Of a DNA stretch of 64,000 nucleotides, positions 1,504 through 60,042 are shown piece after piece (within the stretch, counting starts at the first letter, position 1; the number at the start of each line of letters is the position of its first letter). Below the pieces are notes generated by a model that was not told the origin of the DNA, ran no database searches, and saw only the letters and a program-made list of their open reading frames with translations. A program made the position numbers and the translations under genes. The DNA comes from Myxococcota bacterium (GTDB lineage Bacteria > Myxococcota_A > SURF-8), in contig OZ223209.1 of the NCBI GenBank assembly GCA_965140415.1, positions 1,184,001-1,248,000 on the forward strand, in the 5' to 3' direction.

Positions 1504-1515
1504 GTTGTCATCCCT

Positions 1516-23900: not shown

Positions 23901-25596
23901 TTCCGATGTCACGCTTGAAGTAAAGGGCCCGATTCAGCATCTCCTTACAAGCCTCGATGGAATCCTTGCTTCGGCGCTACAAGATCTGCCTAACTTCGTA
24001 GATCACGCCGATCCGCTGGACTGGCCGATGCGTTCCGGTTTTGCCGTGATCGGCGAAAAGACCTCTGTAACTACCTTGCTGCCAATAGGGTCTATTACTC
24101 GCCAAAATATGGTGGAAATGTATCAGGCAGAGCACGTGATGACCTTGTATCACGAAGCGCTACATACCTTGCTTGTCATGTCCGAGTTCGACCCCTTACG
24201 CGAATTGCTTAAGCATTACAGCAACGGCACCTTCGGCTCCAATATCGAATATGAGAATAGGACACCGATTTTGGAAGAGATCATGTCGGATTGTTTGTTG
24301 GCGGAGAGGGTGTTTTTCCCTGAGCTGGGCGATCTCCTGAGCGACCCGAACGAAGAACAGAAAAATGATCGCGCCAACCGTTTCAAAGAAAGCAATCGTC
24401 ACTTTTTACGCTGGCTTTCGTTCAATTTCCTGCAAATCGGTACGTCTTCCGATCCGACCCTGCAAGAGTTGGAAAAGGATTTTTATCGCCGTGCCCGTTT
24501 CTTTGCCCGTTTGATTTTCGCCATGAATCTCGACGAAGAAGACCAGTTGGACCTCGCCGATAAGGACTATTTCAAGACCTGGGAAGAACGTTTTCATAGC
24601 CCGATGCGCATGGCAAACTATTTCCTCCCGAAACTTTCCGGTTTCAAGGATGAGTTGAGTGCGCACATTCCGCCCAGTGCCCTCTCAGAAGAGACTCTGA
24701 AGAACAAGAATGGTGTGGGTTGGAAGTTTTGGGTTCTGTTGCATCAGAAGTTCCAACACCTGGTTCTTGCGCCGGAAGGCTTGTTGAAACTCGAATACGA
24801 GCATCAGGTCCAGCTATTCGAGAAATTAAAAGAGAATTTCGACATCGAACAGGATATTGCATCTCAGGACGAGCATTTAAGAAAGAAATTCGAAACTCGG
24901 CTGGAAAAGATCAAGTGTCTGTTGCAAAATTTTGTGAACAAGGCGCACGACGATCTACCTCCCCCCATGCTGCATTTCCTATTGACGATGAAGTATTTGC
25001 TATGGGGATTTCGGAGCTACGACACCCACGAAAACCTGCCTTTGGTCGGTGCGGATAGATGGGAAACCCTTAGCAAAGAAGATTTTATCGATTACCGCCA
25101 AAATCGCCTGGCCGCCTTCACTCTCGATCCGATCCGTGACCCCGACTATCTTGGTCCCCTTGACGGCTCTCCCTCCATAAAGGATATCGATTGTCAATTT
25201 AGTCGAGGATATGGTTTCATCAGTAAGGTGTTCTCTCAATACCTGGAACATCTCTTCGATCCACCTATAAATAAAGGTGAAAATAAAGATTGGCCGCGAA
25301 CCCCTTTCAAGCGTTTGGGTCGCGCGGAAACAGACTGCTCCCCTGAATTTGAGGAAGGCGATCCGCCCCTGTTGGCCGATCCGGCTGGCGGCTCTTTTAC
25401 GCCTGACTTCGAGTATCGCCGCCTTTATTTTGGCGCTGGCGAGGTTTGCATGTTTTCGCTTTGGGATTATGGTTTATTTGCTCGCCGCCGGAAATTGTTG
25501 AACCTTTTATTGCGCCCCTTCGTTAAAGCTCAATCAGGAGATTACAAGGAGTTTTTGGGAGAAGACAAAAAGGTCGAGGAGGTGAGGGAAGTATAA
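20932..25596 (+). CDS. Large uncharacterised protein (~1550 aa) with C-terminal HExxH zincin-like motif (frame open from 20845)
   Basis: Long ORF; LYHEALHTL followed by EEIMSD; N-terminal recurring beta-G-x-x-D/E motifs (FGPFDA, MGWSEL, PGKTDM). Confidence 0.8.
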   Translation: MAPSNDLNRCRLKDYGLMMSFHATPPDRIFSIFDELKDHYARFRDPLFLTCKEYEEKSKRPRTKDFKEKKREFEKFFYHPFFAFLFGPFDAMSMALVDHYELSMFLHPPSSSSLQVAFHAVPQNFPSKSQIKVFSEQCPALAGFDPRLREKHITETVKSVFVSPLSMFGNELFPTQDFTEHLISKLQAHGLLKKELPGLPEKYPLNKQVHYMLHTVFKPIPYPELSKPKPPSDSQLGKLFDLMQSADFIEPGSSLALYKDVVTAVYVKSIDDLKNEKRNEPIHRQRKRLANEMPLIAIVKIKLNAVLLLTFGASLVRRINRAMRALLHTYRDEDDGSLRYNPLECDLKVKVTALEPMGWSELSLCLISNNYEDLAAAILRIREAKLSDLIIEPDPEATGKEAENESILKQAAYQLKEPWFPTDLSSFPLLRLFHGDRNKAEILFSTFLLEALANPAFADLASGGFRHEYPHVYARRTTSDEPLYQDAPLGLYFRELCHLFGVPDKDGKHDNPNLRGEIESAIKDYLAQSKTNPPKSLLSFLRPVFERPTMDDPPSPHDWEDNEKKNLEREQRNYLGRCYHAVLSRILAHFDELPPFLANETWKQHLAGYDKTVEDIIKEMHLAVDSNAKDINLISITHSFFGVGRTFMETLRDFCFQRGDFEDLNSKDEAKRAQAEQAKTELLASLDNINGFVLPSIGFNARPGKLNALYNKLNELAYDLININAATDENSSFNDKPHLRRLLNDLKNQPIPVPEDFGEGKYILVEPGKTDMNLQFSWFKESSKDWIFNPRAPIPTRLFLLLLMASMTTLAKQEDSEASPASVPKNYRAFALEIYRQRSSLGVLVETKKTPVTFMDPKKRADETKNVMNPNFQLLELLRLGELYDLYLKSNIRKLGIPKHLKNELRLMLGVYDSIITDPIQFDAILELGPSLVRSLKYIQECMDTKTPGKKILLESKKQEKLIEDIEFSLRRLRDGFSNRYSSSFALTELSDVTLEVKGPIQHLLTSLDGILASALQDLPNFVDHADPLDWPMRSGFAVIGEKTSVTTLLPIGSITRQNMVEMYQAEHVMTLYHEALHTLLVMSEFDPLRELLKHYSNGTFGSNIEYENRTPILEEIMSDCLLAERVFFPELGDLLSDPNEEQKNDRANRFKESNRHFLRWLSFNFLQIGTSSDPTLQELEKDFYRRARFFARLIFAMNLDEEDQLDLADKDYFKTWEERFHSPMRMANYFLPKLSGFKDELSAHIPPSALSEETLKNKNGVGWKFWVLLHQKFQHLVLAPEGLLKLEYEHQVQLFEKLKENFDIEQDIASQDEHLRKKFETRLEKIKCLLQNFVNKAHDDLPPPMLHFLLTMKYLLWGFRSYDTHENLPLVGADRWETLSKEDFIDYRQNRLAAFTLDPIRDPDYLGPLDGSPSIKDIDCQFSRGYGFISKVFSQYLEHLFDPPINKGENKDWPRTPFKRLGRAETDCSPEFEEGDPPLLADPAGGSFTPDFEYRRLYFGAGEVCMFSLWDYGLFARRRKLLNLLLRPFVKAQSGDYKEFLGEDKKVEEVREV

Positions 25597-28500
25597 TGCC
25601 TGTCGACTTCACCCAACTATTAGCTGATTTCAAGCCCGAATTTGTTGAAACCTTGGATCGTCTTCGATCCCAGGAAGAACAACCCATTTTTTCCAAATTC
25701 AATGTCAATAAAACCAAACTGGACTCCCACTACGATACTGGGACCGAAGAATACACACAGAAAAAGAAGCAACTGGAAGATACAAAAGAAAAGGAAATGA
25801 AAAGTGTTGAAAAAGATTACGATCTCTTGCTCCGCGAATACGATCGAATCTCCTCTCTTTCCTACCGACAGGAATCGCATGCAAGCGAGCAGATTATATT
25901 TCCCTATAAACTCCTCATTTTATCGTATCACTTGATGCTTGACTACGAGTTGAATAGGACCGTCTTCGGCCTCCCAATGCGCGATTTTCTCGGAAGAAGA
26001 GCCCGAGCAATTCTATGGCGGATTCTTAATCCGCCTCTGGGTATGACCTCGATTCCGCAGCGCCTGTATTTTTCCTGTTGGTGGCTTATTTTTTACAGTT
26101 ACGCCTCTTCCGGTAATGCCCTGGGACTGTTTCAAGCCCGCCGAATTATGCTTAAGACTCTATTGCTTTACTCTAAAACAGTGGGCGTCTCGCGTCATAC
26201 CGTTAACGTATTTTGCTGCATAGTGGATCTAAATCTAGTCATGCAAGCAAGAAAAGATCAGAAACTCAAAAAGCCGATTTCCCACACTGATCCTCATTAT
26301 GATAAATTAAACAGCTTAGTCAACCTCCTTAGCGAAGATCCCTCCTCTAAATACCTGCAACGCGAACTTTCTACTCTTATTTCTGAAGCGAATGACCTAT
26401 TGTTTTCTTTTAAGTTAGAAAATCCATCTCAGGATTTCGAAGTATTTTCCATCGATATCGATTTACAAACCTGTCTCAATAGTCTGAGATTATTGGATAT
26501 CAAGGCTATACCTCTTTATCAGGATCTCTACTACGAATTACAATCTTTTTCCAAAATCGGCAGTAATGACAACCTCTCAATTTTCGAGAATATGTTCAGT
26601 CGTTATGCCAATGAACTTCTTGCGGATAAATTCGCTCCTTGCAACTTTATCCAAAAACTCGGCGCAAGGAAAATTATCGAATCCTTGTTAAGAGGACATT
26701 TCGATGAAACCTGCCCACTCAATGCTAGATCGATGCGCAGCAGATTTTCTCGGACTAAGATTCCGCAGGAAAGTCCACAAACACCTTTACAAGTCGTGGT
26801 GATAAACTCCCACACTAACATACACTCCTATCCCTCTTCATTTCTCACCAACTTATTCTTATATATTGAAGAAAAATACGAAGACTACGATGCTTCGAAT
26901 ATTGACACCTACCTCCGCTATCTGGTTGCGGAAATCGCCGAATCTTGCCTGAGATATGAATTGGAACTTGCGGCGGAGTTGATGACGCTGGCCCGCCTTC
27001 ATTTTATCTACCTGGAAAAGAGCAAAAAGAACATTCCTTCCGGTTTTAAACATCTGGGTAAATTTCTCGTAAAAATTGCTCCTGGCAAAGATAAGCGGTC
27101 CAACAGCGAGGTCAAAGCGAAGTTTCAGGAATACTTGAGTTCCCTTTCCTGGCCGACTGGAATGCGCCATTTCCTGCTTTCCTTGTTTCCTTCGAGTGGC
27201 GTCGGTGCGGATCACCTGGCCCTTTTAAACCAACCTCGAGGTCTTACGGATTCGGACGACGAAATTCGCATTCACTGTCTTCGTCGTTGGGGTTCGGATA
27301 CATCCCTGTTTACTTGGAACCGCGAAAAGGAACAGAACTGGGGGGGCGGATTCTTTATTTATGCCGGCAAGGACAGAGGAGTTGCGGTTGATCCCGGTCT
27401 GGATTTTCTTGATCTATTTTATATGTACACACCCTATCGCTTTTCGAACATCTCCAGCTACCTGATTACTCATACCCATATCGATCATGCCGGAGAATTC
27501 GAGAAAATGTTCTCGATCAGTGTGAAATATGCAGAACTGGCTAACAATATCCTAAAACCGTTGCAGATCATTTCCTCCAGGGATCGTGGCCATTATATAG
27601 AATGGATGAGTTGGACTAAAGAGGAGTGCCGACGCTGGCAGAGGATCAGAAAACTGAAGAACCCTAGTTGTTGTCCCATTATCGAAAAAAAGGATCAGGG
27701 GTTGCCTGAGTTGTTCAAGCAACGCTGTACAAGTGACAATGAAATTTGTCCTCGCCAGTTTCCTTTTATAAACAAATTGGTTGTAGTAAAAAAGACGATC
27801 GACGAAACAAGTGCAACCGAAGATACAGTGAGTATTCCTCTTACAGACACGAGTCAGATCGATCGTAATCAATGGGCAAAAGTGGTTCCCTTTAAGGCCG
27901 AGCATTATGAATGGCCACTTTCTAAACTCTTTCCAAAGTCTCATAAATACGACAGCAACTCATCCTATCCGAAGAAACGTCGCTCGTATGAGTTTCCTCC
28001 TAAATACTGGACCCCAGATACACCCTCGGATTACAGTGTTGGCTATAAACTAAGCATTAACCCCCCCGCCTCGCAAATGGATTCCTGGTACAATATCCTA
28101 ATTACTGGCGATTTCAGCTACAATCAGGTCAGTGAATTTAAGAAATCAGTGAATTCGGGGCGATTGAATCTCACCGATACGCATGTGATGATTGCCAACA
28201 TCAGTTCGGTCAAATCCAGCGAGTTGGATGAACACAACGGCGATCGTAATGGGGGCAACCATCTGGGACTTTGCGGGTTGATTGACATTGTAGAAATTGT
28301 GAAACCGAAGGTGCTGGTGATCACAGAAATAAATCGGGAACAGTCATTCAAAGATCTTCGCTGCAATCTGCTTGATCTGATCAAGTATCGTCTTAATATT
28401 AAGATGGGGGACGAAGCTCCACCGGTTTTCTTGAGTGAGCTTGGTTTGACCTTCATTTTGCGCGATGGAAAAATCCTGGTGGAATGCGCCTGCTCCTCAC

Positions 28501-28847
28501 TCGCTGATGAGGCACGCGAAATCTATCCTAACCCAGTTACAGTTGAGCAAGTTAAATTCAACTCTTCCGAGCATTACAACAAAAATGGTGAGCTCGCTGT
28601 TTTGTGTGAAAAATGCAAGCCTCTATTCTCAACACCAGAGGACCAGCCACCTCAAGGTGGTGTAACAATCACTCCTCCTCCTCCTCCGGCAACTTCCCGT
28701 TCAATGGACATTCCCGCGGCCACCAGACAAAATAAAAAATGGGGTTCATCTCCTTCCTCCCCCACTCTCCCAGAAACAAACATAGAGGTTCCCTCTCAAA
28801 TTAACTTGGAAGATAAAAAAGATTCTGATCCAAAAACTGTGACCTGA
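25596..28847 (+). CDS. MBL-fold metallo-hydrolase with ~560-aa helical N-terminal extension
   Basis: LRRWGS...GGGFF...VDPG, THTHIDH (HxHxDH), AEH, ITGD, NHLG; TAATG overlap with the upstream gene. Confidence 0.88.
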   Translation: MPVDFTQLLADFKPEFVETLDRLRSQEEQPIFSKFNVNKTKLDSHYDTGTEEYTQKKKQLEDTKEKEMKSVEKDYDLLLREYDRISSLSYRQESHASEQIIFPYKLLILSYHLMLDYELNRTVFGLPMRDFLGRRARAILWRILNPPLGMTSIPQRLYFSCWWLIFYSYASSGNALGLFQARRIMLKTLLLYSKTVGVSRHTVNVFCCIVDLNLVMQARKDQKLKKPISHTDPHYDKLNSLVNLLSEDPSSKYLQRELSTLISEANDLLFSFKLENPSQDFEVFSIDIDLQTCLNSLRLLDIKAIPLYQDLYYELQSFSKIGSNDNLSIFENMFSRYANELLADKFAPCNFIQKLGARKIIESLLRGHFDETCPLNARSMRSRFSRTKIPQESPQTPLQVVVINSHTNIHSYPSSFLTNLFLYIEEKYEDYDASNIDTYLRYLVAEIAESCLRYELELAAELMTLARLHFIYLEKSKKNIPSGFKHLGKFLVKIAPGKDKRSNSEVKAKFQEYLSSLSWPTGMRHFLLSLFPSSGVGADHLALLNQPRGLTDSDDEIRIHCLRRWGSDTSLFTWNREKEQNWGGGFFIYAGKDRGVAVDPGLDFLDLFYMYTPYRFSNISSYLITHTHIDHAGEFEKMFSISVKYAELANNILKPLQIISSRDRGHYIEWMSWTKEECRRWQRIRKLKNPSCCPIIEKKDQGLPELFKQRCTSDNEICPRQFPFINKLVVVKKTIDETSATEDTVSIPLTDTSQIDRNQWAKVVPFKAEHYEWPLSKLFPKSHKYDSNSSYPKKRRSYEFPPKYWTPDTPSDYSVGYKLSINPPASQMDSWYNILITGDFSYNQVSEFKKSVNSGRLNLTDTHVMIANISSVKSSELDEHNGDRNGGNHLGLCGLIDIVEIVKPKVLVITEINREQSFKDLRCNLLDLIKYRLNIKMGDEAPPVFLSELGLTFILRDGKILVECACSSLADEAREIYPNPVTVEQVKFNSSEHYNKNGELAVLCEKCKPLFSTPEDQPPQGGVTITPPPPPATSRSMDIPAATRQNKKWGSSPSSPTLPETNIEVPSQINLEDKKDSDPKTVT

Positions 28848-28848
28848 C

Positions 28849-28930
28849 TGACCTGCCCCCCTAACGAGAATCCAGTAATGATGCTTTGCTCCCCTGACCT
28901 GACCCCGATAGTGACGCCAGTCATTGTGGT
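28849..28930. mobile_element. Two tandem IS3-like terminal repeat remnants
   Basis: TGACCTGCCCCCC...CCAGTAATGATG (28849) and TGACCTGACCCC...CCAGTCATTGTG (28895). Confidence 0.5.
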
Positions 28931-28971
28931 AGGCCCGGATCAGCCGATTGACTTTGGAGACCCCAGATATC

Positions 28972-30375
28972 CGTGCGTCCCGAAAACTCCGTCCAAGCTG
29001 AAATCACTTGCCTTTTCGTGATCATTCCGTAAAGCTGTTTTGCATGAAACTCTTGCTGATTATCACGATGTTGGCCGCCCTGAACCTCTTCCTATTCGGT
29101 TACGTCCACCGGAAACTGATTCTGCTCGTCGCCTTGCAACGTCAACAGCTCGTTGTTTACAAGCGGAAGATCAAACGACCGAGGCTCAAAGAACGGGACC
29201 GTCAATTCTGGATACTTCTTTCAAAGATCTGGTCGGAGTGGAAAGAGCACCTGGTCATTGTCAAACCGGAAACGGTCATCCTATGGCGTCGCCGGAAATT
29301 CAAGGACTACTGGCGGAAACTGTCAAGAGCAGACAGGAAAATAGGACGACCGCCCATCACCAAGGAACACATCGCCTTCATCAAACAGATTTCCGCTGAC
29401 CACCCAGGCTACAGTGGCAAACGCATCGCCGGGATGTTGAACACGTTGTTTGGTGTAAATCACGCCCCAAGCACCGTAGATCGCTACCGAGTGAAGCTGA
29501 CGAAACCGCCTCTTGGAAATCAGCAGTGGAGCACCTTTTTAAAAAACCATGCTTCCGCTATCTGGTCCTTTGATTTCTGTGTCCAGTTCACCTTCTTCTT
29601 TGCCCGAGTTTATATCCTGATCATCATCGAATTGGAAAGTCGACGGATTGTCCATCTCGCTGTGACACTGCACCCAACCCTGGCCTGGCTCAAGCAACAG
29701 ATCCGCAACGCCACCTGGGATAATTGCCCGAAGTTTCTGATCCATGACAACGACGGCATCTTCGGCCAACTGGGAAAGCCAGTGGCCGTTCAATTCAATG
29801 GCAAATCGGTTTCCTGCCGCTCGTCGTTGGATTATTGGCTGGTCACCATCATGGGCATCCGGGGAATTCCGACCCCGTTCCAAGCGCCCAATGCCAACGC
29901 CCATTGCGAGCGCGTCGTGGGCACGCTACGCCGGGAGTGCCTGGAGCACATGCTCTTTCTCAACGAATGGCATCTGATGCGGGTGCTGCGGGAATACAAA
30001 GACTATTACAACCACGAGCGTTACCATCAAGGCATCAAGCGGATTCCAAACCCAGCCGATGACATTGCCGATAGCCGGAAACTTGAGGGCAAAGGCAAGC
30101 TGGTTCCCAAGCCGATCCTGAACGGACTGCTCCACAGCTATCGGCTGGCGGCTTGACGTTTTAGCTGGTGATCTTAGAATGGGTCTCGGATTGAAACCTA
30201 TGGACAGGTCCATCCAATACTCGCCATTTACACGTTTCAATGAACAATTCGGTCATAGTGGGAGGGGAGTTCATGTCCCGCGCCGCCGAATTCCTTCTCC
30301 TCCAGACTCGCAAAGTGTTTTCTCATCGGGCGATCATCGCCAAATCATGTCCGGATGGAGTTTTCGGGTTGCACG
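28972..30375 (+). mobile_element. Insertion sequence (~1.4 kb) with rve/DDE transposase
   Basis: Imperfect inverted repeats CGTGCGTCCCGAAAACTCCGTCC and GGATGGAGTTTTCGGGTTGCACG; no target duplication seen. Confidence 0.85.
29044..30156 (+). CDS. Integrase core (rve) domain transposase
   Basis: IVKPETVILW, WSFDF, LIHDNDG, PNANAHCERVVGTLRRECL, YYNHERYHQG. Confidence 0.92.
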   Translation: MKLLLIITMLAALNLFLFGYVHRKLILLVALQRQQLVVYKRKIKRPRLKERDRQFWILLSKIWSEWKEHLVIVKPETVILWRRRKFKDYWRKLSRADRKIGRPPITKEHIAFIKQISADHPGYSGKRIAGMLNTLFGVNHAPSTVDRYRVKLTKPPLGNQQWSTFLKNHASAIWSFDFCVQFTFFFARVYILIIIELESRRIVHLAVTLHPTLAWLKQQIRNATWDNCPKFLIHDNDGIFGQLGKPVAVQFNGKSVSCRSSLDYWLVTIMGIRGIPTPFQAPNANAHCERVVGTLRRECLEHMLFLNEWHLMRVLREYKDYYNHERYHQGIKRIPNPADDIADSRKLEGKGKLVPKPILNGLLHSYRLAA

Positions 30376-30604
30376 AGTTGCGAATCAGTCCCTTTTTAAC
30401 TATGAAAAGAACGGTATCAACAGTCTTTTTCTCAAGCCAATAGAGCATGAGATCAATTGCAATTTTTGTTTTTCCGAGTCCTTGCTCGTGAAAGATTGCA
30501 GCGTACTCAAGTTCGCGGACAGCCTGAACAGCCTCGCTTTGGTAGGAAAACGCCTGATGTTTTGCATCAAGTCTAGGTTCTTTTTTCAGCTTAATCTTAG
30601 GCAT
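30376..30604 (-). pseudogene. SNF2/SF2 helicase N-terminal fragment truncated by the IS
   Basis: Q motif FSYQ, Walker A HEQGLGKT; homology stops exactly at the IS end (30375). Confidence 0.85.
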
Positions 30605-30627
30605 AATTCCTCAACCTGCATTTCTGT

Positions 30628-31038
30628 CTAGCAAGGGAGGTTGGCAATTACATCAATTGATACCGAACTAGAATTGGTTTCAATTTGAAGACGCTTGGTT
30701 AAAGCTCTCGCAAACCTGCTCATTGGCCATGGAACTGCAAATACAAAAACAGAGTTTCCACATGTGGAACCATATTTTAAGAAAGCTCTGATTTGTTCCA
30801 CCGAATGAGGTCTTTCAACGTCCCCTATTGTTTTGGCTTCACCAATAACAGTTAAGCCATTTGGTGCTGTTGCAGTGAAAACGTCTGGAACGTACCCGTT
30901 AATTTTAGGAGGTTTACTTGAAACGTTCATCGTAGGGTGATCGATTAATAAAAACCCTTTGTCTCCATTCAAATACGTCTTGGTAACCCAAGCCACTAAA
31001 TCTTCCACAAGTGTAACATGAGCCGCTGATTCTGCCAT
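30628..31038 (-). CDS. Small PD-(D/E)xK nuclease-like protein
   Basis: VPDV...IGEAKT; TAATG overlap with the upstream ParB-like gene. Confidence 0.7.
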   Translation of the reverse strand: MAESAAHVTLVEDLVAWVTKTYLNGDKGFLLIDHPTMNVSSKPPKINGYVPDVFTATAPNGLTVIGEAKTIGDVERPHSVEQIRAFLKYGSTCGNSVFVFAVPWPMSRFARALTKRLQIETNSSSVSIDVIANLPC

Positions 31039-32063
31039 TATTCTTCCGAATCAAAGCCGATATCTTTACAGAGGTCGCTAAGGGCATCTCTGGCATCACA
31101 AACCACGGAGACTTCTGGTGTGTCTTTCCTACTCCGAAGTTTCTGAAGATCAATATATTGAATTCCACTTATTCGCTTGCTAAGCTCTCTTGCCAGTTGC
31201 TCCAGTGTTGCATCCTGCAGGGCAGATTCTGGATTTGGCACATCCAAAGCCTTTATTGCTTCTTGGGCGCCATGTTTTAGAAAAATGGCCTTGGCTTTTT
31301 CATTCTGTAAGATTTGGGGTAGTTTACGAACAGTATTTAAAGGGAATATTTTTTGAGTATTGACCCATTCTGCGAAATCCTTTTTTGTGTAATTTGCTAA
31401 AAGAAGTGCATTGACTACTCGCGGACGCTGAAGCTCGACAAATGCACTAAAACGCGAGGGATCAAAATCTTGGTCGCTATCAAGCAGGGGTCTGTAGTTA
31501 GACTCCATGTCGTTGTAAGCTTCAATATAATTTTGTACTTCCCGTTTATCTCCACCACAAAAGTCCACTAGTTGAGAAAAAGTAAGATGCTCATTGTTTC
31601 TAAGAAGATTCAGATATTTCGCTTTTGAATAGGGATCCCATTCTCGTGTCCCAACCAAGTGAGCCTGCAATCGTATCGCATCAATTGAATCTGTGGGTAG
31701 CTCATCATGGACCATAGATGGGATCTTGTCCCAAGGTCCTTTGGGATCACTCGCTTTCAGCTCTCGATAAATGTGCGTCCTTGTGTTCCCTTCGATTACA
31801 ACAAGCTTTCCATCGCTCTCTCTATTCACAATAATTGGGTGGATAATTCCACAATTTGTTTGAATTGACTGTTTTAAACTTTGGTAGCTTGGACCTCCCA
31901 CATCATCTTGCCCTCCACCTGAGCGCAAGGCCAATTCAATCTGTGCGGAAGTTGGTGCTCCTTCATATATTTCAAGCCATTTGGCGATCCTTGGATTCTG
32001 TAAATCCAAATCGATCGAATCGACATCTAGCATTTCAAATCTTGCACCCGCAGGTTTAGACAT
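31038..32063 (-). CDS. ParB/Srx-like N-terminal domain protein
   Basis: LDLQNPRI, LKQSIQTNCGIIHPIIV, VIEGNTR. Confidence 0.8.
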   Translation of the reverse strand: MSKPAGARFEMLDVDSIDLDLQNPRIAKWLEIYEGAPTSAQIELALRSGGGQDDVGGPSYQSLKQSIQTNCGIIHPIIVNRESDGKLVVIEGNTRTHIYRELKASDPKGPWDKIPSMVHDELPTDSIDAIRLQAHLVGTREWDPYSKAKYLNLLRNNEHLTFSQLVDFCGGDKREVQNYIEAYNDMESNYRPLLDSDQDFDPSRFSAFVELQRPRVVNALLLANYTKKDFAEWVNTQKIFPLNTVRKLPQILQNEKAKAIFLKHGAQEAIKALDVPNPESALQDATLEQLARELSKRISGIQYIDLQKLRSRKDTPEVSVVCDARDALSDLCKDIGFDSEE

Positions 32064-32272
32064 ATGCGACTCCGTTCTTGTAATGGAACCAAAGGTGGCT
32101 CATCCTTGAGGTATGAGAAAGATCATAGTAAAGATGTGAAGTCTTCACAACAATTTTCTCTTTTCATTTCATTTTTAGACGTTCCCTCGCCATGTGCGCG
32201 AGGGAGTCGAACTCGGAGAAATTAGTCTCCTCTATCAGGATCGCGTAACCGTCCGTAAACAATCGGGATTCA

Positions 32273-32513
32273 CATTTCGGACGAGGTCGGCGAAATTTCG
32301 GACGAAGTCCGAAACCACGGAGAACAGAGAGAGAAAAACGGTGATTTCGGGTAGCGAGGGGAACGATGGGTGGAAGCCCCGTCCGAAATCGAGCGAGAGC
32401 GTGCCGACTAGAGAATCCAGAAAAACCATAGAAATCAAGCAGATATAGGCTACTCCAGAAACACGAAACCCGCTGCTCTGATCAAACAGAGAGCGGGTTC
32501 GATACTGAAAAAC
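32273..32513. repeat. Island-end module 2 (homologue of 7543-7783), including a hairpin just downstream of tmRNA
   Basis: ATTTCGGACG at 32274 and 32295, GTCCGAAA at 32307 and 32381; hairpin AACCCGCT...AGCGGGTT at ~32467-32499. Confidence 0.75.
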
Positions 32514-39509: not shown

Positions 39510-39787
39510 GGTTTCCAGTGGTTGTAATTCGAATGAAGGGAAATGTAAACAAGTAGGATGGGCAATTGTTTTGCCCATCACCCGAGATTGAGTCTAATCA
39601 AAGAAGACAAACATTTGGAGCAGGGCAGGAGCCCATGCTCCAACGGAAGGTTTCCAGTGGTTGTAATTCGAATGAAGTGAAATGTAAACAAGTAGGATGG
39701 GCAATTGTTTTGCCCATCACCCGAGATCGAGTCTAATTAAATAAGACAAACATTTGGAGCAGGGCAGGAGCCTATGCTCCAACGGAA
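39510..39787. repeat. Tandem 139-bp duplication containing two REP-like palindromes per unit
   Basis: Units start GGTTTCCAGTGG at 39510 and 39649; contain GTAGGATGGGCAATTGTTTTGCCCATC and TTGGAGCAGGGCAGGAGCCCATGCTCCAA. Confidence 0.92.
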
Positions 39788-51863: not shown

Positions 51864-53303
51864 CTACTCCATTTCGCTGAGCAGTTGTTCCAGGCTGCGG
51901 CCCTTTTCCTGCTCTTCCTGTTCGTATTCTTTCAGTTTGTACTGGATTTTGCGCGGGCTGATTTTCAGAACCTCGCTGGTCCGCTTGGTGGATTTACCCA
52001 TGGCCAGCCAGGTCTTAAGTAGTGCTTCCTGTTCGATTTCCTTGAGTGAGCGACCGACGATCATGCCGGTATTGCTAACGGATTCGCTCTCTTTGTGCAA
52101 GGTCGGCATGTGTTTGGGTAGGATGGTATTGCCGCGCGTCATGATGACCGCTCGTTCGATCACGTTTTCCAATTCGCGAACGTTGCCCGGCCAGTCGTAG
52201 CTCAGCGCCGTCGTCAAGACGTCGTCGTCCATGTCCTGCACTTCTTTTTTGTTCTTTTCCGCATACTTACGGATGAAGTGCTCGATCAGTAACGGGATAT
52301 CCGAGCGCCGCTCACGCAGGGGCGGCAGGTTGATCGGGATGACATTCAGGCGGTAATACAAATCCTCGCGGAAATGTCCCAGCGCGACTTCCTTGTCCAG
52401 CGGACGGTTGGTGGCGGCGATGACGCGGACATCGACCTTGATGGTTTTAGTGCCGCCGACGCGTTCGAATTCGCGCTCCTGTAAAAAGCGCAGAATCTTG
52501 ACCTGGGTGACTTCCGGCATCACGTTGACGTCATCCAAAAACAGGGTGCCGCCGTGCGCCAGTTCGAAGCGTCCTTCCCTGCGACTGAATGCGCCGGTAA
52601 ACGAACCTTTTTCGTGTCCGAAGAGTTCGCTTTCCAATAGCGTTTCGGTAAAGACCGCGCAGTTGACCTTGACGAAGGGACCGTCGGAGCGGGTGGAATT
52701 GCGGTGAATCGCTTCGCCGATCAATTCTTTTCCGGTGCCGGATTCACCGTAGATCAGCACATTGGCAGTGGAGGGCGCGACCTGCTCGATGATTTTGTAT
52801 ATTTCCTGCATATGTGGATGATTACCCACGAGCCGCTCGAACTTCTTGGTGGCTTTGAGTTGCTCGCGCAAATATTGCGTTTCCTCCAGCAGCTGCATTT
52901 TTTCAAAGGCGCGTTTGACGATCAGTTCCAGCTCATCCAGGTTCACCGGTTTGGTCAGATAGCTTTCCGCACCCAGGCTCATGGCATGCACCGCTTCCTT
53001 GATGGTACCATAGGCTGTGAAGAGCACGATCTGAATTGAAGGTCGGATTTCCTTAATCTTTCCAAGTAGTTCAATTCCGGACATTCCTTCCAGGCGAATG
53101 TCGGAAATCACGACGGAGGGTAGATGTTCCAATACGAGTTTCAAGGCATGTTCCGCACGCGCGGCTTCGAACACTTCGTAGCCGACATCGCGCAGATAAT
53201 ACGCAATGGTCGTTCGCGCGGAGGGCTCGTCATCTACCACGACGATGCGCTTGGTGATAAATTGGCGACTATCCAACCCGTCGGTCATGTCATTGTTTTC
53301 CAT
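51864..53303 (-). CDS. sigma54-dependent response regulator (REC-AAA+-HTH, NtrC/AtoC family)
   Basis: VVDDE, ISDI, GESGTGKE, ESELFGHEKGSFTGA, WPGNVRELEN, C-terminal HTH. Confidence 0.95.
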   Translation of the reverse strand: MENNDMTDGLDSRQFITKRIVVVDDEPSARTTIAYYLRDVGYEVFEAARAEHALKLVLEHLPSVVISDIRLEGMSGIELLGKIKEIRPSIQIVLFTAYGTIKEAVHAMSLGAESYLTKPVNLDELELIVKRAFEKMQLLEETQYLREQLKATKKFERLVGNHPHMQEIYKIIEQVAPSTANVLIYGESGTGKELIGEAIHRNSTRSDGPFVKVNCAVFTETLLESELFGHEKGSFTGAFSRREGRFELAHGGTLFLDDVNVMPEVTQVKILRFLQEREFERVGGTKTIKVDVRVIAATNRPLDKEVALGHFREDLYYRLNVIPINLPPLRERRSDIPLLIEHFIRKYAEKNKKEVQDMDDDVLTTALSYDWPGNVRELENVIERAVIMTRGNTILPKHMPTLHKESESVSNTGMIVGRSLKEIEQEALLKTWLAMGKSTKRTSEVLKISPRKIQYKLKEYEQEEQEKGRSLEQLLSEME

Positions 53304-53562
53304 AAGGCAATCCTAGTGATTTCAAGCAACTACAACCTATCATAGCCGGGAAGCAATCAAAGTGCAAGAAGAAAAAGAAGCTGATGCGAAAAAATTGCAC
53401 TGACATCTTCGTAGGCGCAATCCTTGCGTGTGTATTGTGCGCATCCAAGGTTTTCATTCTGCGAAAAATGAACGTGCAGTCAGTTTTTTGAGTGCTGTAT
53501 CCTGCTGTATTCATAAGGGAAATTCTAATATTAAGATCATTTAATACGGAAATCTGCATGGT

Positions 53563-53578
53563 TGGCACGGCGTTTGCG
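53563..53578 (+). promoter_or_regulatory. sigma54 -24/-12 promoter
   Basis: TGGCACGGCGTTTGCG, consensus match with GG-N10-GC; AT-rich tract just upstream. Confidence 0.85.
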
Positions 53579-53588
53579 TATAAATATG

Positions 53589-53820
53589 GGCGTCTGTACC
53601 GCAATGTTCATTGAACCATTTGCCTTTAGTTTGAATCCTTCGGTTGCCCCTACCGTTGGATTCTGCGGCGTTCCTGCAGTATGTAGTATGGAAGGGAACG
53701 TTGCAAGCAGATTCAACGTGCCCCCAATGTGTTGAATCTGTGTAGTACCGTAGCTCAATTAGTAATGTAGTAGACGAGCTGCGAAATTGGCGAGAGGCCT
53801 CCCCCAACTCTCGCCTTTTT
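53589..53820 (+). ncRNA. Candidate sigma54-dependent small RNA with five stem-loops
   Basis: Promoter, no convincing ORF, consecutive hairpins with repeated loop motifs, terminator GGCGAGAG...CTCTCGCCTTTTT. Confidence 0.7.
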
Positions 53821-54181
53821 CATTTTATGCCTATGATTTTTCATCTGTAGGATGGGCATTTGCCATGCCCATCTTTTCCGAGGTGATGGACAAAACAATT
53901 GCCTTCCGTTAGAGCCGGGCTCCCGTCCTGCTCTATACGTTTTGTCTTAGTGTTCGGGACAGGAGTCTCGCCTGGAAGCCGATGGTTCAAGACAGGAGCC
54001 TAGAACCATCCAAAAAGACTTTCCAGAATTGAAATGCTCATCCCAGCGGGGCTTGTCAAGCCCTGACAAAGCAGTTATACTGGGTTATGGAAGCGCTTAT
54101 TTATGTGTGCTGACTCTCGTAACCTCCGTTGCCGCTAGGCGTTTCGCGTATCGGCGTCGGGCCAGGAGAAAGGAGACCGTC

Positions 54182-54577
54182 ATGCAATGGGTGTACCGAT
54201 GTCCGTTCTGCCAGGCACATTTGAACCCCAGCGGGGAACGGGTGGTGCTGCTGGCGGATTGCGAACTGGGTCGGGGCTTGTTCCTTTTCGACGATGAGCC
54301 CGGCAACTACGAATTGACGCTCCCTCTGGATGTCGAGGTTCAACAGGGGCAGGTGTGGGAGTTTCTTTGTCCCGTCTGTCGCAAGAACCTGACCAGCAAG
54401 GCCGATGCCAATATCGCCATGATTCGCCTGACCGACGAGCACCAGGAGGACCACGCGGTCTTTTTTTCCAAGATCGCAGGAGAACGCTGCACCTTCGTCG
54501 TAACGGCGAAGGGCGTGCAGGTTTTCGGTCCCGAAGCGGCGATGTACGAACACCTGCTCTGGAACAAATTCTTCTAG
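54182..54577 (+). CDS. Hypothetical protein with two CxxC motifs
   Basis: AGGAGA RBS; CPFC and CPVC. Confidence 0.8.
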   Translation: MQWVYRCPFCQAHLNPSGERVVLLADCELGRGLFLFDDEPGNYELTLPLDVEVQQGQVWEFLCPVCRKNLTSKADANIAMIRLTDEHQEDHAVFFSKIAGERCTFVVTAKGVQVFGPEAAMYEHLLWNKFF

Positions 54578-54923
54578 GTAACGGGCGGCCATCCTTTTAT
54601 AAGGGGTGAGACAATATCCCTGCGCTTGCTTGTTTCCCCTGTTTGCAATTCAGATTTACGTTTGTGTAAATTTGCTTCTCCGCTACAATGCGTTTAGAGA
54701 TTTTCTTACATTGTGAAGCGGAGCCGAAGATGGGATTCAAGTGGTAGCAGTAGGGTGGTTTTCACTCGACATTTATTTAAACAATAGAAAATTCTTGGAA
54801 TTAGGGGGGAGGGGAGATTATGTTGATCATCGGAATGTGGTATTAACATTTACATGTTCGGATCGTTTCCACGGTTCAATCTTGCTTGTAAGAGTGCTTA
54901 TTTGACGAATTGCGGAGGATACA

Positions 54924-55625
54924 ATGACAAGAGACCGATCGAAGTTCTGGATGGTCTTGGGCGTTGTGGTGTTGATCATGAGTTCGGCGGCGTCCAGCCA
55001 GGGCGAAGTAAAAAGCGCTCTTGGTGAAAGTTGTGTGAGCACAGCGGACTGCATAAGCGGGTTAGTTTGCGCCAATTCAAAATGCGTGGGCAAACTTGAT
55101 GCTGCGAAAAGCTGCGCAAGAACGGCGGACTGCCCGAGGGGCTTGCGATGCATCGACAACAAGTGCATTGCTAAGCAAATATATGGCGCTTGGGTCGACC
55201 CCGTAAGCGGCCTGACCTGGCAGAATCCACCAGCGCAAAAGATGTATGATTGGAAGGATGCTAAAGCTTACTGTTCCCACCTGGAGCTTGGTGGCTATAG
55301 TGACTGGCGGTTGCCTACGATCAGCGAACTTCGGTCCTTGATTCGCCGATGTTCAGCCAATCAGACGGGTGGTAGTTGCAGAGTGACTGATACATGCCTT
55401 TCAAGTAATTTGTGTGACGAAAACTGTCACGCATGTGAAGCTAAAGAGGAACGCTATTACTGGCCGGACGAGATGGAAAAAGCAGGGAATGATACATGGC
55501 AGTTTTTTTGGTCGTCGTCGCCCGTCGAGGACCGCGTCTACAACGTGTGGCTCGTCGGCTTCATCGGCGGCATCGTGTACAACGGCAGCGTCGACGACCC
55601 CAGCAGCGTTCGGTGTGTGAGGTAG
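54924..55625 (+). CDS. Exported DUF1566 (Lcl C-terminal, CLec-fold) protein with Cys-rich N-terminus; putative DGR target
   Basis: DPVSGLTWQ, AKAYC, GGYSDWRLPTISELRSL, FWSSS...VRCVR*. Confidence 0.9.
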   Translation: MTRDRSKFWMVLGVVVLIMSSAASSQGEVKSALGESCVSTADCISGLVCANSKCVGKLDAAKSCARTADCPRGLRCIDNKCIAKQIYGAWVDPVSGLTWQNPPAQKMYDWKDAKAYCSHLELGGYSDWRLPTISELRSLIRRCSANQTGGSCRVTDTCLSSNLCDENCHACEAKEERYYWPDEMEKAGNDTWQFFWSSSPVEDRVYNVWLVGFIGGIVYNGSVDDPSSVRCVR

Positions 55626-55673
55626 TGGCGTAGTCGTAGGTAGGTTACTTTTCACCCGACATTAATTTGGATA

Positions 55674-55760
55674 GTCGGCTCCACTGGAGCCGACCTCCTC
55701 GTTGGAGCATTGACTCCTGCCATGCTCCACAGGTTTTGGTCGGGTCTTCTGACCCGACAC
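55674..55760. repeat. Palindrome cluster (REP-like) downstream of the DUF1566 gene
   Basis: GTCGGCTCC-ACT-GGAGCCGAC; TGGAGCAT...ATGCTCCA; GTCGGGTC-TTCT-GACCCGAC. Confidence 0.75.
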
Positions 55761-55931
55761 TTGAGAGCTTTGAACCATCAAACGTCGAGTGATGGGCAAA
55801 GCAATTGCCCCTCCTACCTAAATTACCCCTTCCAAACTCAGAAAAACCTTGGCCCAACTCCACCCAAGTATGTATAATCACGCCATTCATTTTCGTACCA
55901 CAGCTCGATGACGAATGCAGGAGGAGGCGGC

Positions 55932-57266
55932 ATGGCGACGCAACCCGATCGTGGGCATTGGGGAAGTAAACTGGGATTCGTTCTGGCGGCAGCCGGTTCC
56001 GCCGTAGGTTTGGGAAATATCTGGCGATTTCCATACGTTACCCAGGAAAACGGCGGTGGCGCGTTCGTACTCTTTTACATTCTGGCCATTCTGGTGATCG
56101 GCCTGCCGGTCATGCTAGGCGAATTGACGATCGGTCGCCATAGTCAGAAGAACCCGGTCGGTGCCTATCGCAAGATCGCTCCCAGATGGTCCTTCGTCGG
56201 CGTGTTGGGCGTGGTGACCGGTATTGCGATTCTCTCCTATTATTCCGTAGTTGCAGGTTGGACGCTGGGCTATGTCATCAAGTCCATCGGCGGCGATCTG
56301 GACCCGGCAGCTTTTGGCGGCTTTATCGGTAACGCCCCGTTACAAATTGGCTATCTACTTGTATTCATTACTGTTACCGGGTTCGTAGTTGCACTGGGCG
56401 TGCAGAAGGGCATCGAAAACATGGCCCGCGTGTTGATGCCGCTATTGGTGCTGTTGATGCTTGGCCTGATCGTTCGCGGCTTGATGCAGCCTACCGCCAT
56501 GGACGGGCTGGAATTCTTTCTGCTCCCCAATTTCAGTGCAGTAAGTGGAAAAACCGTATTGTACGCCGTGGGGCAGGCCTTCTTTTCGCTGTCATTGGGT
56601 ATGGGTGTGATGATCACCTACGGTGGTTACATCGAAAAGAAAGACAACCTTGTAACCAGCGCCATTGCCGTGGTCGGCTTCGATACGCTGATCGCCATCA
56701 TGGCCGGTTTTCTGATCTTCCCGCTGATCGGGCATGGCCTGGCTAAAGGCGGGCCGACACTGGTGTTTATCACCATGATCGAGCAATTCAACCAGATGAC
56801 CGGCGGGCGCTGGGTGGCGTTATTGTTCTTCTTCATGCTTGCCGTTGCCGCATTGACGAGCACCGTTTCGCTTTTAGAGGTCGTAACCTCCTATTTCGTG
56901 GACGAATGGAAGCTGACCCGGCGCAAGTCGGTGGTGATCGTGGTGGCCATTTCGGTGGCGCTGGGCATTCCTTCCGCCTTGTCGTTAGGAGCGGTGCCGG
57001 GACTGAGTAACGTGGTGGGCGGTATGGGATTTCTGGATCTGATGGACTTCCTGTTCGGGAACCTCTCGCTTTCTATCGGGGCGTTTTTAATGTGTATTTT
57101 CCTGGTGTATCGTTGGGGAATCCAGAACGCCGCCCAGGAAATACTGGGCAGCGCGCCGGGATTCGCCCCTTATGTAAAAGGTTGGCGAGCATTAATGGGT
57201 GGCATCGTTCCGCTGGCGATTCTGGCCCTGATTCTGTACATGATCGTTACCGGTGGCAGCCTGTAA
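55932..57266 (+). CDS. Sodium-dependent transporter, SNF/NSS family
   Basis: GSAVGLGNIWRFPY, GGGAF, GQAFFSLSLG. Confidence 0.95.
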   Translation: MATQPDRGHWGSKLGFVLAAAGSAVGLGNIWRFPYVTQENGGGAFVLFYILAILVIGLPVMLGELTIGRHSQKNPVGAYRKIAPRWSFVGVLGVVTGIAILSYYSVVAGWTLGYVIKSIGGDLDPAAFGGFIGNAPLQIGYLLVFITVTGFVVALGVQKGIENMARVLMPLLVLLMLGLIVRGLMQPTAMDGLEFFLLPNFSAVSGKTVLYAVGQAFFSLSLGMGVMITYGGYIEKKDNLVTSAIAVVGFDTLIAIMAGFLIFPLIGHGLAKGGPTLVFITMIEQFNQMTGGRWVALLFFFMLAVAALTSTVSLLEVVTSYFVDEWKLTRRKSVVIVVAISVALGIPSALSLGAVPGLSNVVGGMGFLDLMDFLFGNLSLSIGAFLMCIFLVYRWGIQNAAQEILGSAPGFAPYVKGWRALMGGIVPLAILALILYMIVTGGSL

Positions 57267-57574: not shown

Positions 57575-57949
57575 ATGACTTTACACGGTTTTCCACGCTG
57601 CCGTCGTATTCTGAAGAGCTGGCATTTTCGCCTGCTCCAGAGTGAAGGCGAGCGGCTGGTGACCCGGCGAATGGTGTTTTTGGTACGTCCGAATGATGTA
57701 GGCTACTCCCGCTTGGGGCAGATCGTCAGTCGTAAAGTAGGAAACGCCGTGGTTCGAAATCGGGTGCGACGGGTCGTGCGCGAAGTGTTTCGCCTGCACG
57801 ATGACTTGGCGTTGCGTCCGCTGGATATCGTCGTCATTCCCCGTCCGGCCCTCAATAAACCTGCTTCCTTTCACGACGTGGCAGAGGAATTTTCCCGTTT
57901 TCTCGATCGATACGATCGCTTGCATAGCGAGAAAGAGGAGGCGCAATGA
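57575..57949 (+). CDS. rnpA: RNase P protein component
   Basis: [16 protein letters not shown]; gene order. Confidence 0.95.
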
Positions 57950-58200
57950 GCTGGTTGCGCAAAATCGTCCTTTTGCCGGTCCGATTTTACCAGTGGTTCA
58001 TTTCGCCCCTTTTAGGTCCGCATTGCCGGTTTACGCCGACCTGCTCCAACTACGCCATCGAGGCGGTGGAGCGTTACGGCATTATCATCGGTGGACTGAA
58101 AGCCATCACCCGGTTGTTGCGATGCCATCCCCTGTTTCCCGGCGGTTACGATCCGGTAGAAAACGGGTGGCCGCGCGTCGGAAAAGACCGAAAGCGATAG
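57946..58200 (+). CDS. yidD: Membrane protein insertion efficiency factor
   Basis: [14 protein letters not shown]...GGYDPV. Confidence 0.96.
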
Positions 58201-58209
58201 GAGAGTCTC

Positions 58210-60042
58210 GTGGAACGACGCTTTATTTACGCGCTGTTGCTGTCTCTGGGAGTGCTGTACCTGTGGAACGTGGTAATCAATCCACCGCCTCCTCCGCCTC
58301 CGGTTGAAGAAGGTCAGCCCGCAGCACAAGTCGCCCAGCCCGCTCCCAAGCCCGAAAAAATGGATGCGCCGCTGTTCGACGAGCCCAGCTCCGAGCCTCC
58401 CGCCATGCTGCCCCCGCTGGCCGAAAAGAAAGTGGAACCGGCCCCGGAACAAGATCCGGCCCAAGCCGACGACGCCACTGCCAAGCTGGATGCAGACCCG
58501 CAGGAAGGCAACGCCCCGACGCCGCCCGCTCCGGTCGTTCCCAAAGTGGAGCCGCCCAAAGAGCAGCCGGAACGGTTTATCACGCTTGAAAACGATCTGT
58601 TCAAAGCCGTCTTTTCGTCGCATGGCGCCAAGCTGAAAAGCTGCGAACTGAAAAGCAAGAAATTCAGCGAAGCCATTCCCGATTCCGATGAACGCATGCA
58701 GGTGGATCTGGTGACCACCGATCATGCGGGTCGATTACCTTATGCCTTGCTGCTTGAGCAGGCCAATTTCCAGTATTCACCCGATCAATCCTTTGAAGTC
58801 GCTTCTAAAAGCGCAACGTCCGTGACCTTCCGCAGCAAGACTCCGCAAGGCGTAACTATTGAAAAACGCTTCAGTATGACGGATAAAGACTACCTGCTCG
58901 ACATGAACGTGTCGGTCATCAACGGCGCGGGTGCGGCAGTCAGTTTCTTCCCCAAGGTGCGTCTGGTCGGTTTCCAGGACGATCGTCACGTTCAATCGGG
59001 TATGTTCGGCTCCATGCCGATGAACCTGCAAATTCCCAAGGCCTTTATCAGCGGGGAACTGTGGGAAGAGGAAGATCCCTCCAGCCTGGAACAGTTGCTG
59101 GTGAAAAAGGGCGATATCACCTGGACCGGCATCGACAACCGCTATTTCCTGATGGCCTTGATTCCACCGGAGGGTCAGCGCTCGCAGGTCGACATCAAGA
59201 CCGTGATCAAGCAGGCCAGCGACGAGCAGGGCAAGGAATTCAAGGAAACCTGGCTGGGAATCACCCACAGCCTGGCGAAACAGGAACTTCAGGCGGGGCA
59301 GAACGCATCGCTAGACTACAAGATTTATGTTGGCCCCAAAGGCTACGATCGCCTGCGCGAAACCGGCTATCACCTGGAAGAATCCGTGGATTTCTGGGTG
59401 TTGGGCGTGCTGGCCAAGCCGATGCTCTGGTTCCTGATTGCCAGCCAGTCGGTGGTTGTCAACTGGGGACTGGCCATCATCATCCTGACGGTGGTCGTCA
59501 AACTGCTGCTCTATCCGCTCACGCGCAAATCCTTCCAATCCATGCAGAAAATGAAGGACTTGAAGCCCAAGCTGGACGCCATCAAGGAAAAGGTCGGCGA
59601 CGACAAGCAGGCCTTGAACCAGCAGATGATGGAGTTATATAAACAGGAGGGCGTCAACCCGCTGGGTGGTTGTTTGCCGATGCTGCTGCAAATGCCGGTC
59701 TTTATTGCGCTCTATAAGGTGTTACAGAACTCCGTAGAGTTGTACAACGCCGCCTTCATTCCCGGTTGGCTGGACGATCTGGTTCAGCCGGACCCTTATT
59801 ACATCCTGCCGGTGCTGCTGGGTGTGATGATGTTCGTCCAGCAGAAAATGACGCCTACGCCCGATAGCCAGCAACAGAAAATGATGATGTACATGATGCC
59901 GGCCATGATGTTCTTCTTCATGCTCATGCTGCCCAGCGGCCTGGTGCTTTACATTCTGGCCAATACGGTTGTCAGCCTGGGACAGCAGTGGTGGATCAAC
60001 AAGAAAGCGCAGGAAGAAAAGGCCAAGCAGGCCACGGCGTAA
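58210..60042 (+). CDS. yidC: Membrane protein insertase
   Basis: YVGPK, NWGLAIIILT, NPLGGCLPMLLQMP, DPYYILP. Confidence 0.97.
   Translation: MERRFIYALLLSLGVLYLWNVVINPPPPPPPVEEGQPAAQVAQPAPKPEKMDAPLFDEPSSEPPAMLPPLAEKKVEPAPEQDPAQADDATAKLDADPQEGNAPTPPAPVVPKVEPPKEQPERFITLENDLFKAVFSSHGAKLKSCELKSKKFSEAIPDSDERMQVDLVTTDHAGRLPYALLLEQANFQYSPDQSFEVASKSATSVTFRSKTPQGVTIEKRFSMTDKDYLLDMNVSVINGAGAAVSFFPKVRLVGFQDDRHVQSGMFGSMPMNLQIPKAFISGELWEEEDPSSLEQLLVKKGDITWTGIDNRYFLMALIPPEGQRSQVDIKTVIKQASDEQGKEFKETWLGITHSLAKQELQAGQNASLDYKIYVGPKGYDRLRETGYHLEESVDFWVLGVLAKPMLWFLIASQSVVVNWGLAIIILTVVVKLLLYPLTRKSFQSMQKMKDLKPKLDAIKEKVGDDKQALNQQMMELYKQEGVNPLGGCLPMLLQMPVFIALYKVLQNSVELYNAAFIPGWLDDLVQPDPYYILPVLLGVMMFVQQKMTPTPDSQQQKMMMYMMPAMMFFFMLMLPSGLVLYILANTVVSLGQQWWINKKAQEEKAKQATA

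Follow-up and report, generated by a model that had tools for sequence, protein, structure and literature searches.

In a 64,000-nt stretch of DNA from a Myxococcota bacterium (contig OZ223209.1, positions 1,184,001 to 1,248,000 of the forward strand; hereafter the window, with positions counted from its first letter), we found a gene for a putatively exported DUF1566/Lcl_C protein whose last 38 codons carry the signature of a variable repeat (VR), as written into target genes by a diversity-generating retroelement (DGR). From the codons of this segment, its nearest DNA relative, the variability of its family, and the predicted fold of the protein, we infer that 55509-55622 was very probably produced by DGR retrohoming. 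The reading that we favor, at about even odds (probability roughly 0.5), goes one step further and takes codons 196-233 to be a DGR-written VR that is still served in trans by a remote DGR outside the window.

The segment is set off from the rest of its gene by its codon usage. Codon 196 of the open reading frame (ORF) 54924-55625 begins at 55509, and from there none of the 38 sense codons ends in A, compared with 39 of 195 upstream (Fisher p=6.6e-4), and 25/38 end in C against 52/195 upstream (p=7e-6). Codons 200-228 (CCC...AGC) contain 25 C-ending codons in 29, which is the single top value among the 17,320 stretches of that length in 38 window ORFs, ahead of a runner-up of 24. The bias is synonymous, because pyrimidine-ending codons split C:T 25:2 within the segment as opposed to 52:49 before it (p=5e-5). 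All 16 adenines of the segment lie at codon positions 1 (8) or 2 (8), and serine is encoded by TCG at constant sites and by AGC at variable sites. The GC content is 0.61-0.64 in 55500-55619 and 0.44-0.57 earlier in the gene, where third positions are 27% C and 20% A, and the 3′ end of the gene reads GTTCGGTGTGTGAGGTAG. These counts uphold a sequence-only reading of the stretch, which had noticed the abrupt switch in codon style from 55509, with 25 of 29 codons ending in C and none in A, as well as the closing sequence of the gene. The second most C-biased codon run of the window (22/29) lies in ORF 7993-8982 (-), which encodes a Cys-rich protein of 329 aa that belongs to no Pfam or NCBIfam family; this run is N-terminal (codons ~21-70), is rich in TGC, AGC, and GGC, and has no DGR-like frame.

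The segment can be divided into two constant blocks and a diversified core. The 5′ block of 24 nt, 17 of which are G or C, encodes its three serines by the adenine-free codon TCG and is identical at 24/24 nt in the second genome described below. A GC-rich 5′ constant flank is a feature of pairs of template repeat (TR) and VR, and the block at 55509-55532 fits it (PMC5758913). The core contains 18 hypervariable codons, all of the form NNC (204-207, 210, 212, 214, 215, 217, 219-222, and 224-228), set among the fixed scaffold codons W209, V211, F213, G216, and V218, with V223 being semi-variable. The 15-nt 3′ block, V-R-C-V-R, is nearly identical in the second genome and is a candidate for the start of a sequence like the initiation of mutagenic homology (IMH), whose 3′ limit is definable only against a TR.

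A degenerate pattern that matches the window's own VR was run over the genome contig collection and found a single locus, so that the window's genome is not part of this collection; the locus, L001, is on contig CAZFVN010000101.1 (58% GC) of a metagenome-assembled genome (MAG) labelled uncultured Myxococcales. There, 2643-3545 (-) encodes a 300-aa DUF1566 protein (Lcl_C 6.5e-17), to which window positions 55509-55618 align ungapped by blastn while nothing upstream aligns; the codon comparison carries the ungapped alignment to 55622 (114 nt). Of the 33 mismatches, 17 are at codon position 1, 12 at position 2, and 4 at position 3, and 28 are inside the 18 hypervariable codons. Identity by codon position 1, 2, and 3 is thus 21/38, 26/38, and 34/38 in the segment, as opposed to 61/101, 67/101, and 40/101 aligned codons in the upstream domain, where third positions are 40% identical and synonymous sites are near random. 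Amino-acid identity is alike in both parts (19/38 and 49/101). The third-position excess in the segment is significant in comparison with the upstream domain (p=9e-8) as well as with the 0.52 that composition would predict (p=7e-7). Adenine is kept at 13/36 variable positions in the window and at 11/36 in L001, and the L001 gene shows the same internal switch, with C at the third position of 26/38 codons compared with 89/259 upstream. A gene pair that keeps its third positions and differs at positions 1 and 2 shows the reverse of ordinary divergence, and would fit two draws from near-identical templates.

The same positions vary throughout the family. Of 569 candidates in a homologue search, 289 proteins passed E<=1e-3 and 120 of these were listed; the closest among those listed are 63, 62, 55, and 51% identical to the window protein. 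We aligned the C-terminal 70 residues of all 120 listed proteins and dropped three with more than 6 gaps, keeping the window protein and 116 homologues. Across these homologues, W196, S197-199, W209, V211, F213, G216, and V229-R233 are nearly fixed, and the columns with an entropy above 3 bits are 18 in number and are exactly the NNC codons of the window gene. Lys, Glu, Gln, Met, and Trp, which NNC codons cannot encode, occupy 106 of the 2077 cells at the hypervariable columns (5.1%) and 3796 of 23,942 in the remainder of the proteins (15.9%; p=2.5e-49); 61/116 homologues have none of these residues at the hypervariable columns and 55/116 have one to five. The commonest residues there are Tyr, Gly, Asp, Ser, and Asn, and this preponderance is the spectrum expected from AAC mutagenesis. 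Mutagenesis of the adenines of AAC gives a 15-residue outcome (PMC5758913). Judged indirectly, codons 204-228 appear to follow the expected pattern of DGR variation. A search with residues 190-233 for shorter homologues, such as short ORFs derived from a TR, gave no candidate. With phmmer, the 44-aa C-terminus had 40 matches at E<=1e-3 among 1.84 billion representatives, and of the six examined, the three shortest (49-64 aa) were rejected as template translations, being truncated VR ends that are not Asn-rich.

The protein itself is of a kind known to carry VRs. Its assignment to DUF1566, made earlier from sequence alone, is secured by a match to Pfam Lcl_C (PF07603, formerly DUF1566) with E 1.3e-21 and 77.5 bits, above the gathering threshold of 34.9, over residues 91-233 and profile positions 4-117 of 117; the match to Fib_succ_major (NCBIfam TIGR02145) is weak and below cut-off (E 1.2e-4, 22.8 bits vs 41.65). 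The AlphaFold2 model, built with 120 homologues, has a mean pLDDT of 85.8, and its C-terminal strands are above 90. Its best fold match in the Protein Data Bank (PDB) is 8q4e_A, the C-terminal domain of Legionella Lcl (Foldseek E 1.2e-4, target-normalised TM 0.51), followed by the C-type lectin domains of mannose-receptor, snake-venom, and langerin, and the matches in BFVD are phage DUF1566 proteins and viral C-type lectins. A sequence search of the PDB with the family profile found 8q4e alone, at E 0.3. The protein is therefore predicted to fold as a C-type lectin, with the variable region at the C-terminus of the domain.

From the N- to the C-terminus, the gene encodes a signal-like segment, two small 4-Cys modules, and the DUF1566/Lcl_C domain that ends in the variable region. 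As read from the translation, the first part has a basic N-terminus, a hydrophobic helix, and then SSAASSQ, and it lacks a lipobox cysteine; the AlphaFold2 model places a helix at residues 6-20 within it, and the protein would putatively be exported via a Sec signal peptide. The Cys-rich modules match Pfam families below cut-off (DUF7107, 5.3e-5; EB and Dumpy DPY, 2e-4), and their DNA forms an imperfect direct repeat, D2, with a spacing of 81 nt (55027-55063 and 55108-55144). No match was found in the phage collection for 55480-55640 (blastn) or residues 89-233 (tblastn), and none in the plasmid collection for 55480-55640 (blastn); a tblastn match of residues 89-233 to one DUF1566 gene on a Fulvitalea plasmid was rejected as unrelated. 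Outside the window, the 385-aa protein P0010 has two DUF1566 domains and is probably a paralogue from the same genome. The features of the gene and its flanks are listed in Table 1.

Table 1. Features of the DUF1566 gene, its variable-repeat-like segment, and the flanking DNA (window positions)
Feature	Position	Strand	Basis or remarks
DUF1566 target gene	54924..55625	+	ORF, 233 aa; Pfam Lcl_C; AlphaFold2 mean pLDDT 85.8
Putative Sec signal peptide, ~residues 1-26	54924..55001	+	Read from translation
Two tandem Cys-rich modules, residues 33-83	55020..55172	+	Weak sub-cut-off Pfam matches
DUF1566/Lcl_C domain, predicted C-type-lectin fold	55194..55622	+	Pfam, fold matches
Variable-repeat-like segment, codons 196-233	55509..55622	+	Codon-style switch; ungapped alignment to L001 gene
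5′ constant part of VR, W-S-S-S-P-V-E-D	55509..55532	+	Identical in L001
Diversified core, codons 204-228	55533..55607	+	Homologue column entropy; L001 mismatches
3′ constant part, V-R-C-V-R	55608..55622	+	Nearly invariant in 116 homologues; L001 similarity ends here
Perfect GC-rich hairpin or cruciform	55674..55694	+	9-bp stem, 3-nt loop ACT
Second hairpin	55739..55758	+	8-bp stem GTCGGGTC/GACCCGAC, 4-nt loop TTCT; read from sequence
Upstream copy, imperfect direct repeat bracketing gene	54740..54778	+	20-mer core; MAFFT extends to ~39 nt
Downstream copy, imperfect direct repeat bracketing gene	55624..55668	+	~45 nt; between VR and hairpin

If the gene is still served in trans, a TR of the DUF1566 ("CLec2", category d) class would lie outside the window, and the serving DGR would be on the same chromosome, no closer than 8.4 kb on the downstream side or 55.5 kb on the upstream side. 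The TR would be transcribed and then reverse-transcribed by a DGR reverse transcriptase (RT) that misreads the template adenines, and the cDNA would replace the 3′ end of the gene. In this way, some 18-20 template codons of the AAC type would become NNC, randomising the ligand-binding face, and the adenine-free scaffold codons (TCG for Ser, GTC for Val, TTC for Phe, GGC for Gly, and TGG for Trp) would stay fixed.

Several results weigh against this reading, one being that the window contains none of the other parts of a DGR. The sequence-only reading had reported neither an RT nor a TR here, and each of our searches agrees with it. With blastn (word size 7), the only matches of 55440-55700 in the window were to itself, to the hairpin, and to a 29-nt repeat of the flank. 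In an adenine-tolerant scan of 55509-55622 against the window, where a mismatch was forgiven if the candidate base was A, the best non-self position had 21 non-adenine mismatches in 114. Pfam (1e-5) detected no RVT family in 44 window ORFs (42 of the 46 picked, plus rnpA and yidD), and NCBIfam found neither an RT nor an Avd-type four-helix-bundle protein in 21 window ORFs, namely those that Pfam left unexplained plus 53290-53604 and 53541-53807; these domain scans left out ORF 57801-58307, which overlaps rnpA and yidD, and ORFs shorter than 80 aa. A tblastn search of the window with the group II RT of L001 gave nothing below E=1. As the window has no TR, RT, or Avd, any DGR must lie beyond 55.5 kb on the upstream side of the segment or beyond 8.4 kb on its downstream side. 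L001 likewise has no TR in the 12.7 kb examined (the other 7.6 kb of the contig being outside this scope). Its sole RT ORF, at 1280-2494 (-), was rejected as a DGR RT, as it covers RVT_1 positions 1-106 of 205 only and belongs to a group II intron, which begins 24 nt past the DUF1566 stop and was detected at 2398-2619 (-) as Rfam RF02005 (group-II-D1D4-6, 172.7 bits). The hairpin downstream of the window gene also departs from the published pattern, as detailed below. The earlier claim of a DGR VR in a DUF1566 domain is strongly backed by the NNC-only hypervariability of the family, the third positions shared with L001, and the lectin fold, but neither of the two defining elements of a DGR, a TR that departs from the VR at adenines alone and a DGR RT, was detected in the window.

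Two observations from these searches concern other features. Matching the first half of RVT_1 only, the L001 RT ORF is truncated or misassembled, and the group II intron occupies the place expected for a DGR hairpin. The best adenine-tolerant match was rejected as a TR because it is an A-rich tract (~13524-13690); this tract of ~280 nt, 13500-13780 (+), was the sole pick of the scan and lies between two divergent ORFs, a giant sigma-54 activator-like one at 9050-13621 (-) and one for a MopE-motif protein at 13827-16928 (+).

Missing DGR parts in the 64 kb, and a missing TR in the 12.7 kb of L001, are what would be seen if the VR had been recently orphaned, that is, written by a DGR that has since been lost or carried by a gene that was transferred without its element, so that the C-terminus is now frozen. 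We regard such a fossil as a real but lesser possibility. It would agree with the fact that most described targets adjoin their RT, with non-adjacent targets in 45/372 DGRs only (PMC5758913), with the 55/116 homologues that have at least one Lys, Glu, Gln, Met, or Trp at variable columns, as in decaying VRs, and with a hairpin loop unlike the DGR consensus. However, synonymous decay is not seen: no codon of the 38 ends in A, 25/29 end in C, and 34/38 third positions equal those of L001, compared with 40% upstream, so any loss of the DGR must have been recent. The reading frame is also intact, and 18/18 variable codons are still NNC. Recent copying is favored because the third positions of the segment have not drifted to the gene's own usage of 27% C and 20% A. 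Together with the sharp boundary at 55509, the lack of A-ending codons and the third positions shared with L001 suggest that the VR is still served or was so until very recently, and we weakly favor a still-served remote target over a recently orphaned VR.

It is quite unlikely that the segment is unrelated to DGRs and reflects the amino-acid make-up of the C-terminal strands of DUF1566 combined with a locally biased codon usage, or a 3′ end made mosaic by recombination with a homologue of a GC-richer organism. The segment is indeed GC-rich (0.61-0.64), its nearest DNA relative is on a contig with 58% GC, and ORF 7993-8982 (-) reaches 22/29 C-ending codons without any DGR context. However, the bias is synonymous, with C:T at 25:2 against 52:49 in the same gene, and the segment is equally atypical of its own gene in L001, so it is not simply donor codon usage. 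Recombination would also leave unexplained the conservation of third positions and the NNC-limited randomisation of positions 1 and 2 across the 116 homologues.

The DNA downstream of the gene contains two hairpins. The first, which the sequence-only reading had placed ~50 bp downstream as a perfect hairpin, is there at 55674-55694: its start is 48 nt past the stop codon and 52 nt past the VR, and it has 7 G-C pairs in its stem, and is not followed by a T-tract. It was rejected as a terminator, as the terminator scan made no call and the T-tract is missing. Hairpins of phage DGRs have a GC-rich 7-10-bp stem and a 4-nt GRNA loop and lie 4-34 bp from the VR (PMC3240598), and such downstream inverted repeats are present in 127/372 DGRs only (PMC5758913). 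The stem of the hairpin fits this pattern, while the loop's size and sequence and the 52-nt spacing do not. As one of 11 perfect hairpins with a stem of at least 9 bp in the 64 kb, it is not diagnostic alone, and it is compatible with a DGR but uninformative. The 3′ arm of the second hairpin carries a partial third copy (55746-55759, repeat family D3) of the core of an imperfect direct repeat found on both sides of the gene. The 20-nt core of this repeat occurs in two places in the window, the upstream one at 54759-54778, 146 nt before the start codon, and the downstream copy begins inside the stop codon. This ~40-nt repeat could mark the edge of a cassette, act as a regulatory site, or belong to a target-recognition element. 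A search of 53300-56000 with Rfam gave nothing at E<=0.1. Elsewhere in the window, three copies of a palindromic hairpin (GATGGGCA...TGCCCATC, 9-bp stem, 5-nt loop) at 39557-39579, 39696-39718, and 53851-53873 have the look of REP-type elements.

That these repeats (54740-54778 and 55624-55668) bound a small mobile or duplicated cassette, with which a VR-like end written by a DGR of a previous host had travelled, is very improbable, since the upstream 585 nt of the gene have the codon usage that is ordinary for the window, the gene adjoins no integrase or transposase (the closest being the IS481-like gene at 29008-30156), and the repeats could equally be regulatory sites, even though the 20-mer core is confined to the two flanks (two matches are reached in 0/100 shuffles), the downstream copy has its start at the stop codon, and a partial third copy lies in the second hairpin.

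A bolder extension of the remote-target reading, which we consider unlikely, is that a lineage of chromosomal DGRs in Myxococcota-like bacteria acts wholly in trans on dispersed secreted DUF1566 lectins. It is based on the window and L001 sharing the VR frame at the nucleotide level, although the genes common to their lineages are saturated at synonymous sites, with no DGR nearby in the DNA examined for either. The ~40-nt flanking repeat and the paired GTCGG-type hairpins would then form a portable target-recognition module, unlike the IMH and GRNA-loop hairpin of phage BPP-1.

As for the surroundings of the gene, rnpA, yidD, and yidC lie in this order at 57575-60042, a classic neighborhood near the chromosomal origin. 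The nearest relative of YidC is 59% identical, and the named relatives (~40%) are from Myxococcota or Deltaproteobacteria MAGs; as these relatives are distant, the organism appears to come from a sparsely sampled lineage. The neighbors of the DUF1566 gene include TrkH, NtrC-like, and SNF genes. Farther away, 17678-32448 is a block with a mobile or defense-related look, which comprises an AEP-TOTE/PrimPol-like protein at 17678-20326 (-), the IS481-like transposase at 29008-30156, several family-less small ORFs, and two huge ORFs without a Pfam family, 20845-25596 (1583 aa) and 25596-28847 (1083 aa).

If a matching template is present elsewhere on the chromosome, this gene would be a clean remote DGR target in a poorly sampled lineage, encoding a secreted lectin in which ~18 codons of the binding face are rewritten, and it would add to the few documented DGRs acting in trans, which are invisible to contig-based metagenome surveys. 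If no template exists, it would be a recently frozen VR, of limited interest. Two checks that need no TR, namely the NNC-only alphabet in homologues and the identity of third positions against the divergence of positions 1 and 2, could flag orphan or remote VRs elsewhere.

Compared with known systems, the closest structure is the C-terminal domain of Legionella pneumophila Lcl (PDB 8q4e), which is of the same Pfam family and is the best structural match, although the two resemble each other only marginally in sequence (profile E 0.3). Lcl, a collagen-like adhesin, is not known to be a DGR target. A literature search for "diversity-generating retroelement" together with "Myxococcota" found no report within the collection searched.

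Remote targets have been described in other bacteria. For ten DGRs, 29 targets lie over 100 kb away from the RT, and the Treponema DGR has seven non-adjacent targets (PMC5758913); diversification in trans has also been reported in Thiohalocapsa PB-PSB1 (PMC10907252). Large surveys acknowledge that they overlook remote targets, which would escape any survey that needs the RT and the VR to be on the same contig (PMC8144416). Like the remote targets of Treponema and Thiohalocapsa, the window gene is far from any RT, and its VR would be recognised only via homology to a distant TR together with sequences at its 3′ end; in contrast to the window gene, their TR is known and agrees with the VR at every non-adenine site, and the target domain is of another class than DUF1566 (PMC5758913, PMC10907252). 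With mtd of Bordetella phage BPP-1, the gene shares a VR at the C-terminus of a C-type lectin fold and, after it, a GC-rich inverted repeat (7-10 bp) without a T-tract. It differs in the loop (3-nt ACT instead of 4-nt GRNA), in the distance (52 nt instead of 4-34 bp), and in that a (GC)14-like IMH can be delimited here only against a TR (PMC3240598).

The nearest counterparts are the DUF1566/DUF823/Fib_succ_major targets (category d, CLec2), with LdtA of Legionella as an example; DUF1566/Fib_succ_major VRs make up 51/372 curated DGRs, and the CLec2 class clusters on the RT tree (PMC5758913). Unlike LdtA, a lipoprotein that adjoins its DGR, the window gene has no lipobox cysteine, and TR, RT, and Avd are absent from the window (PMC5758913). 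Like these targets, it encodes a short DUF1566 protein with a VR at the extreme C-terminus, a constant W-S-S-S...V-R-C-V-R frame, NNC-coded variable positions, a Cys-rich character of the surface or exported kind, and a match to Fib_succ_major that is weak, a likeness that is drawn from the DUF1566 domain and not from an alignment to published CLec2 VRs (PMC5758913). DUF1566-class VRs and remote targets have thus both been described already, and this gene probably adds another case.

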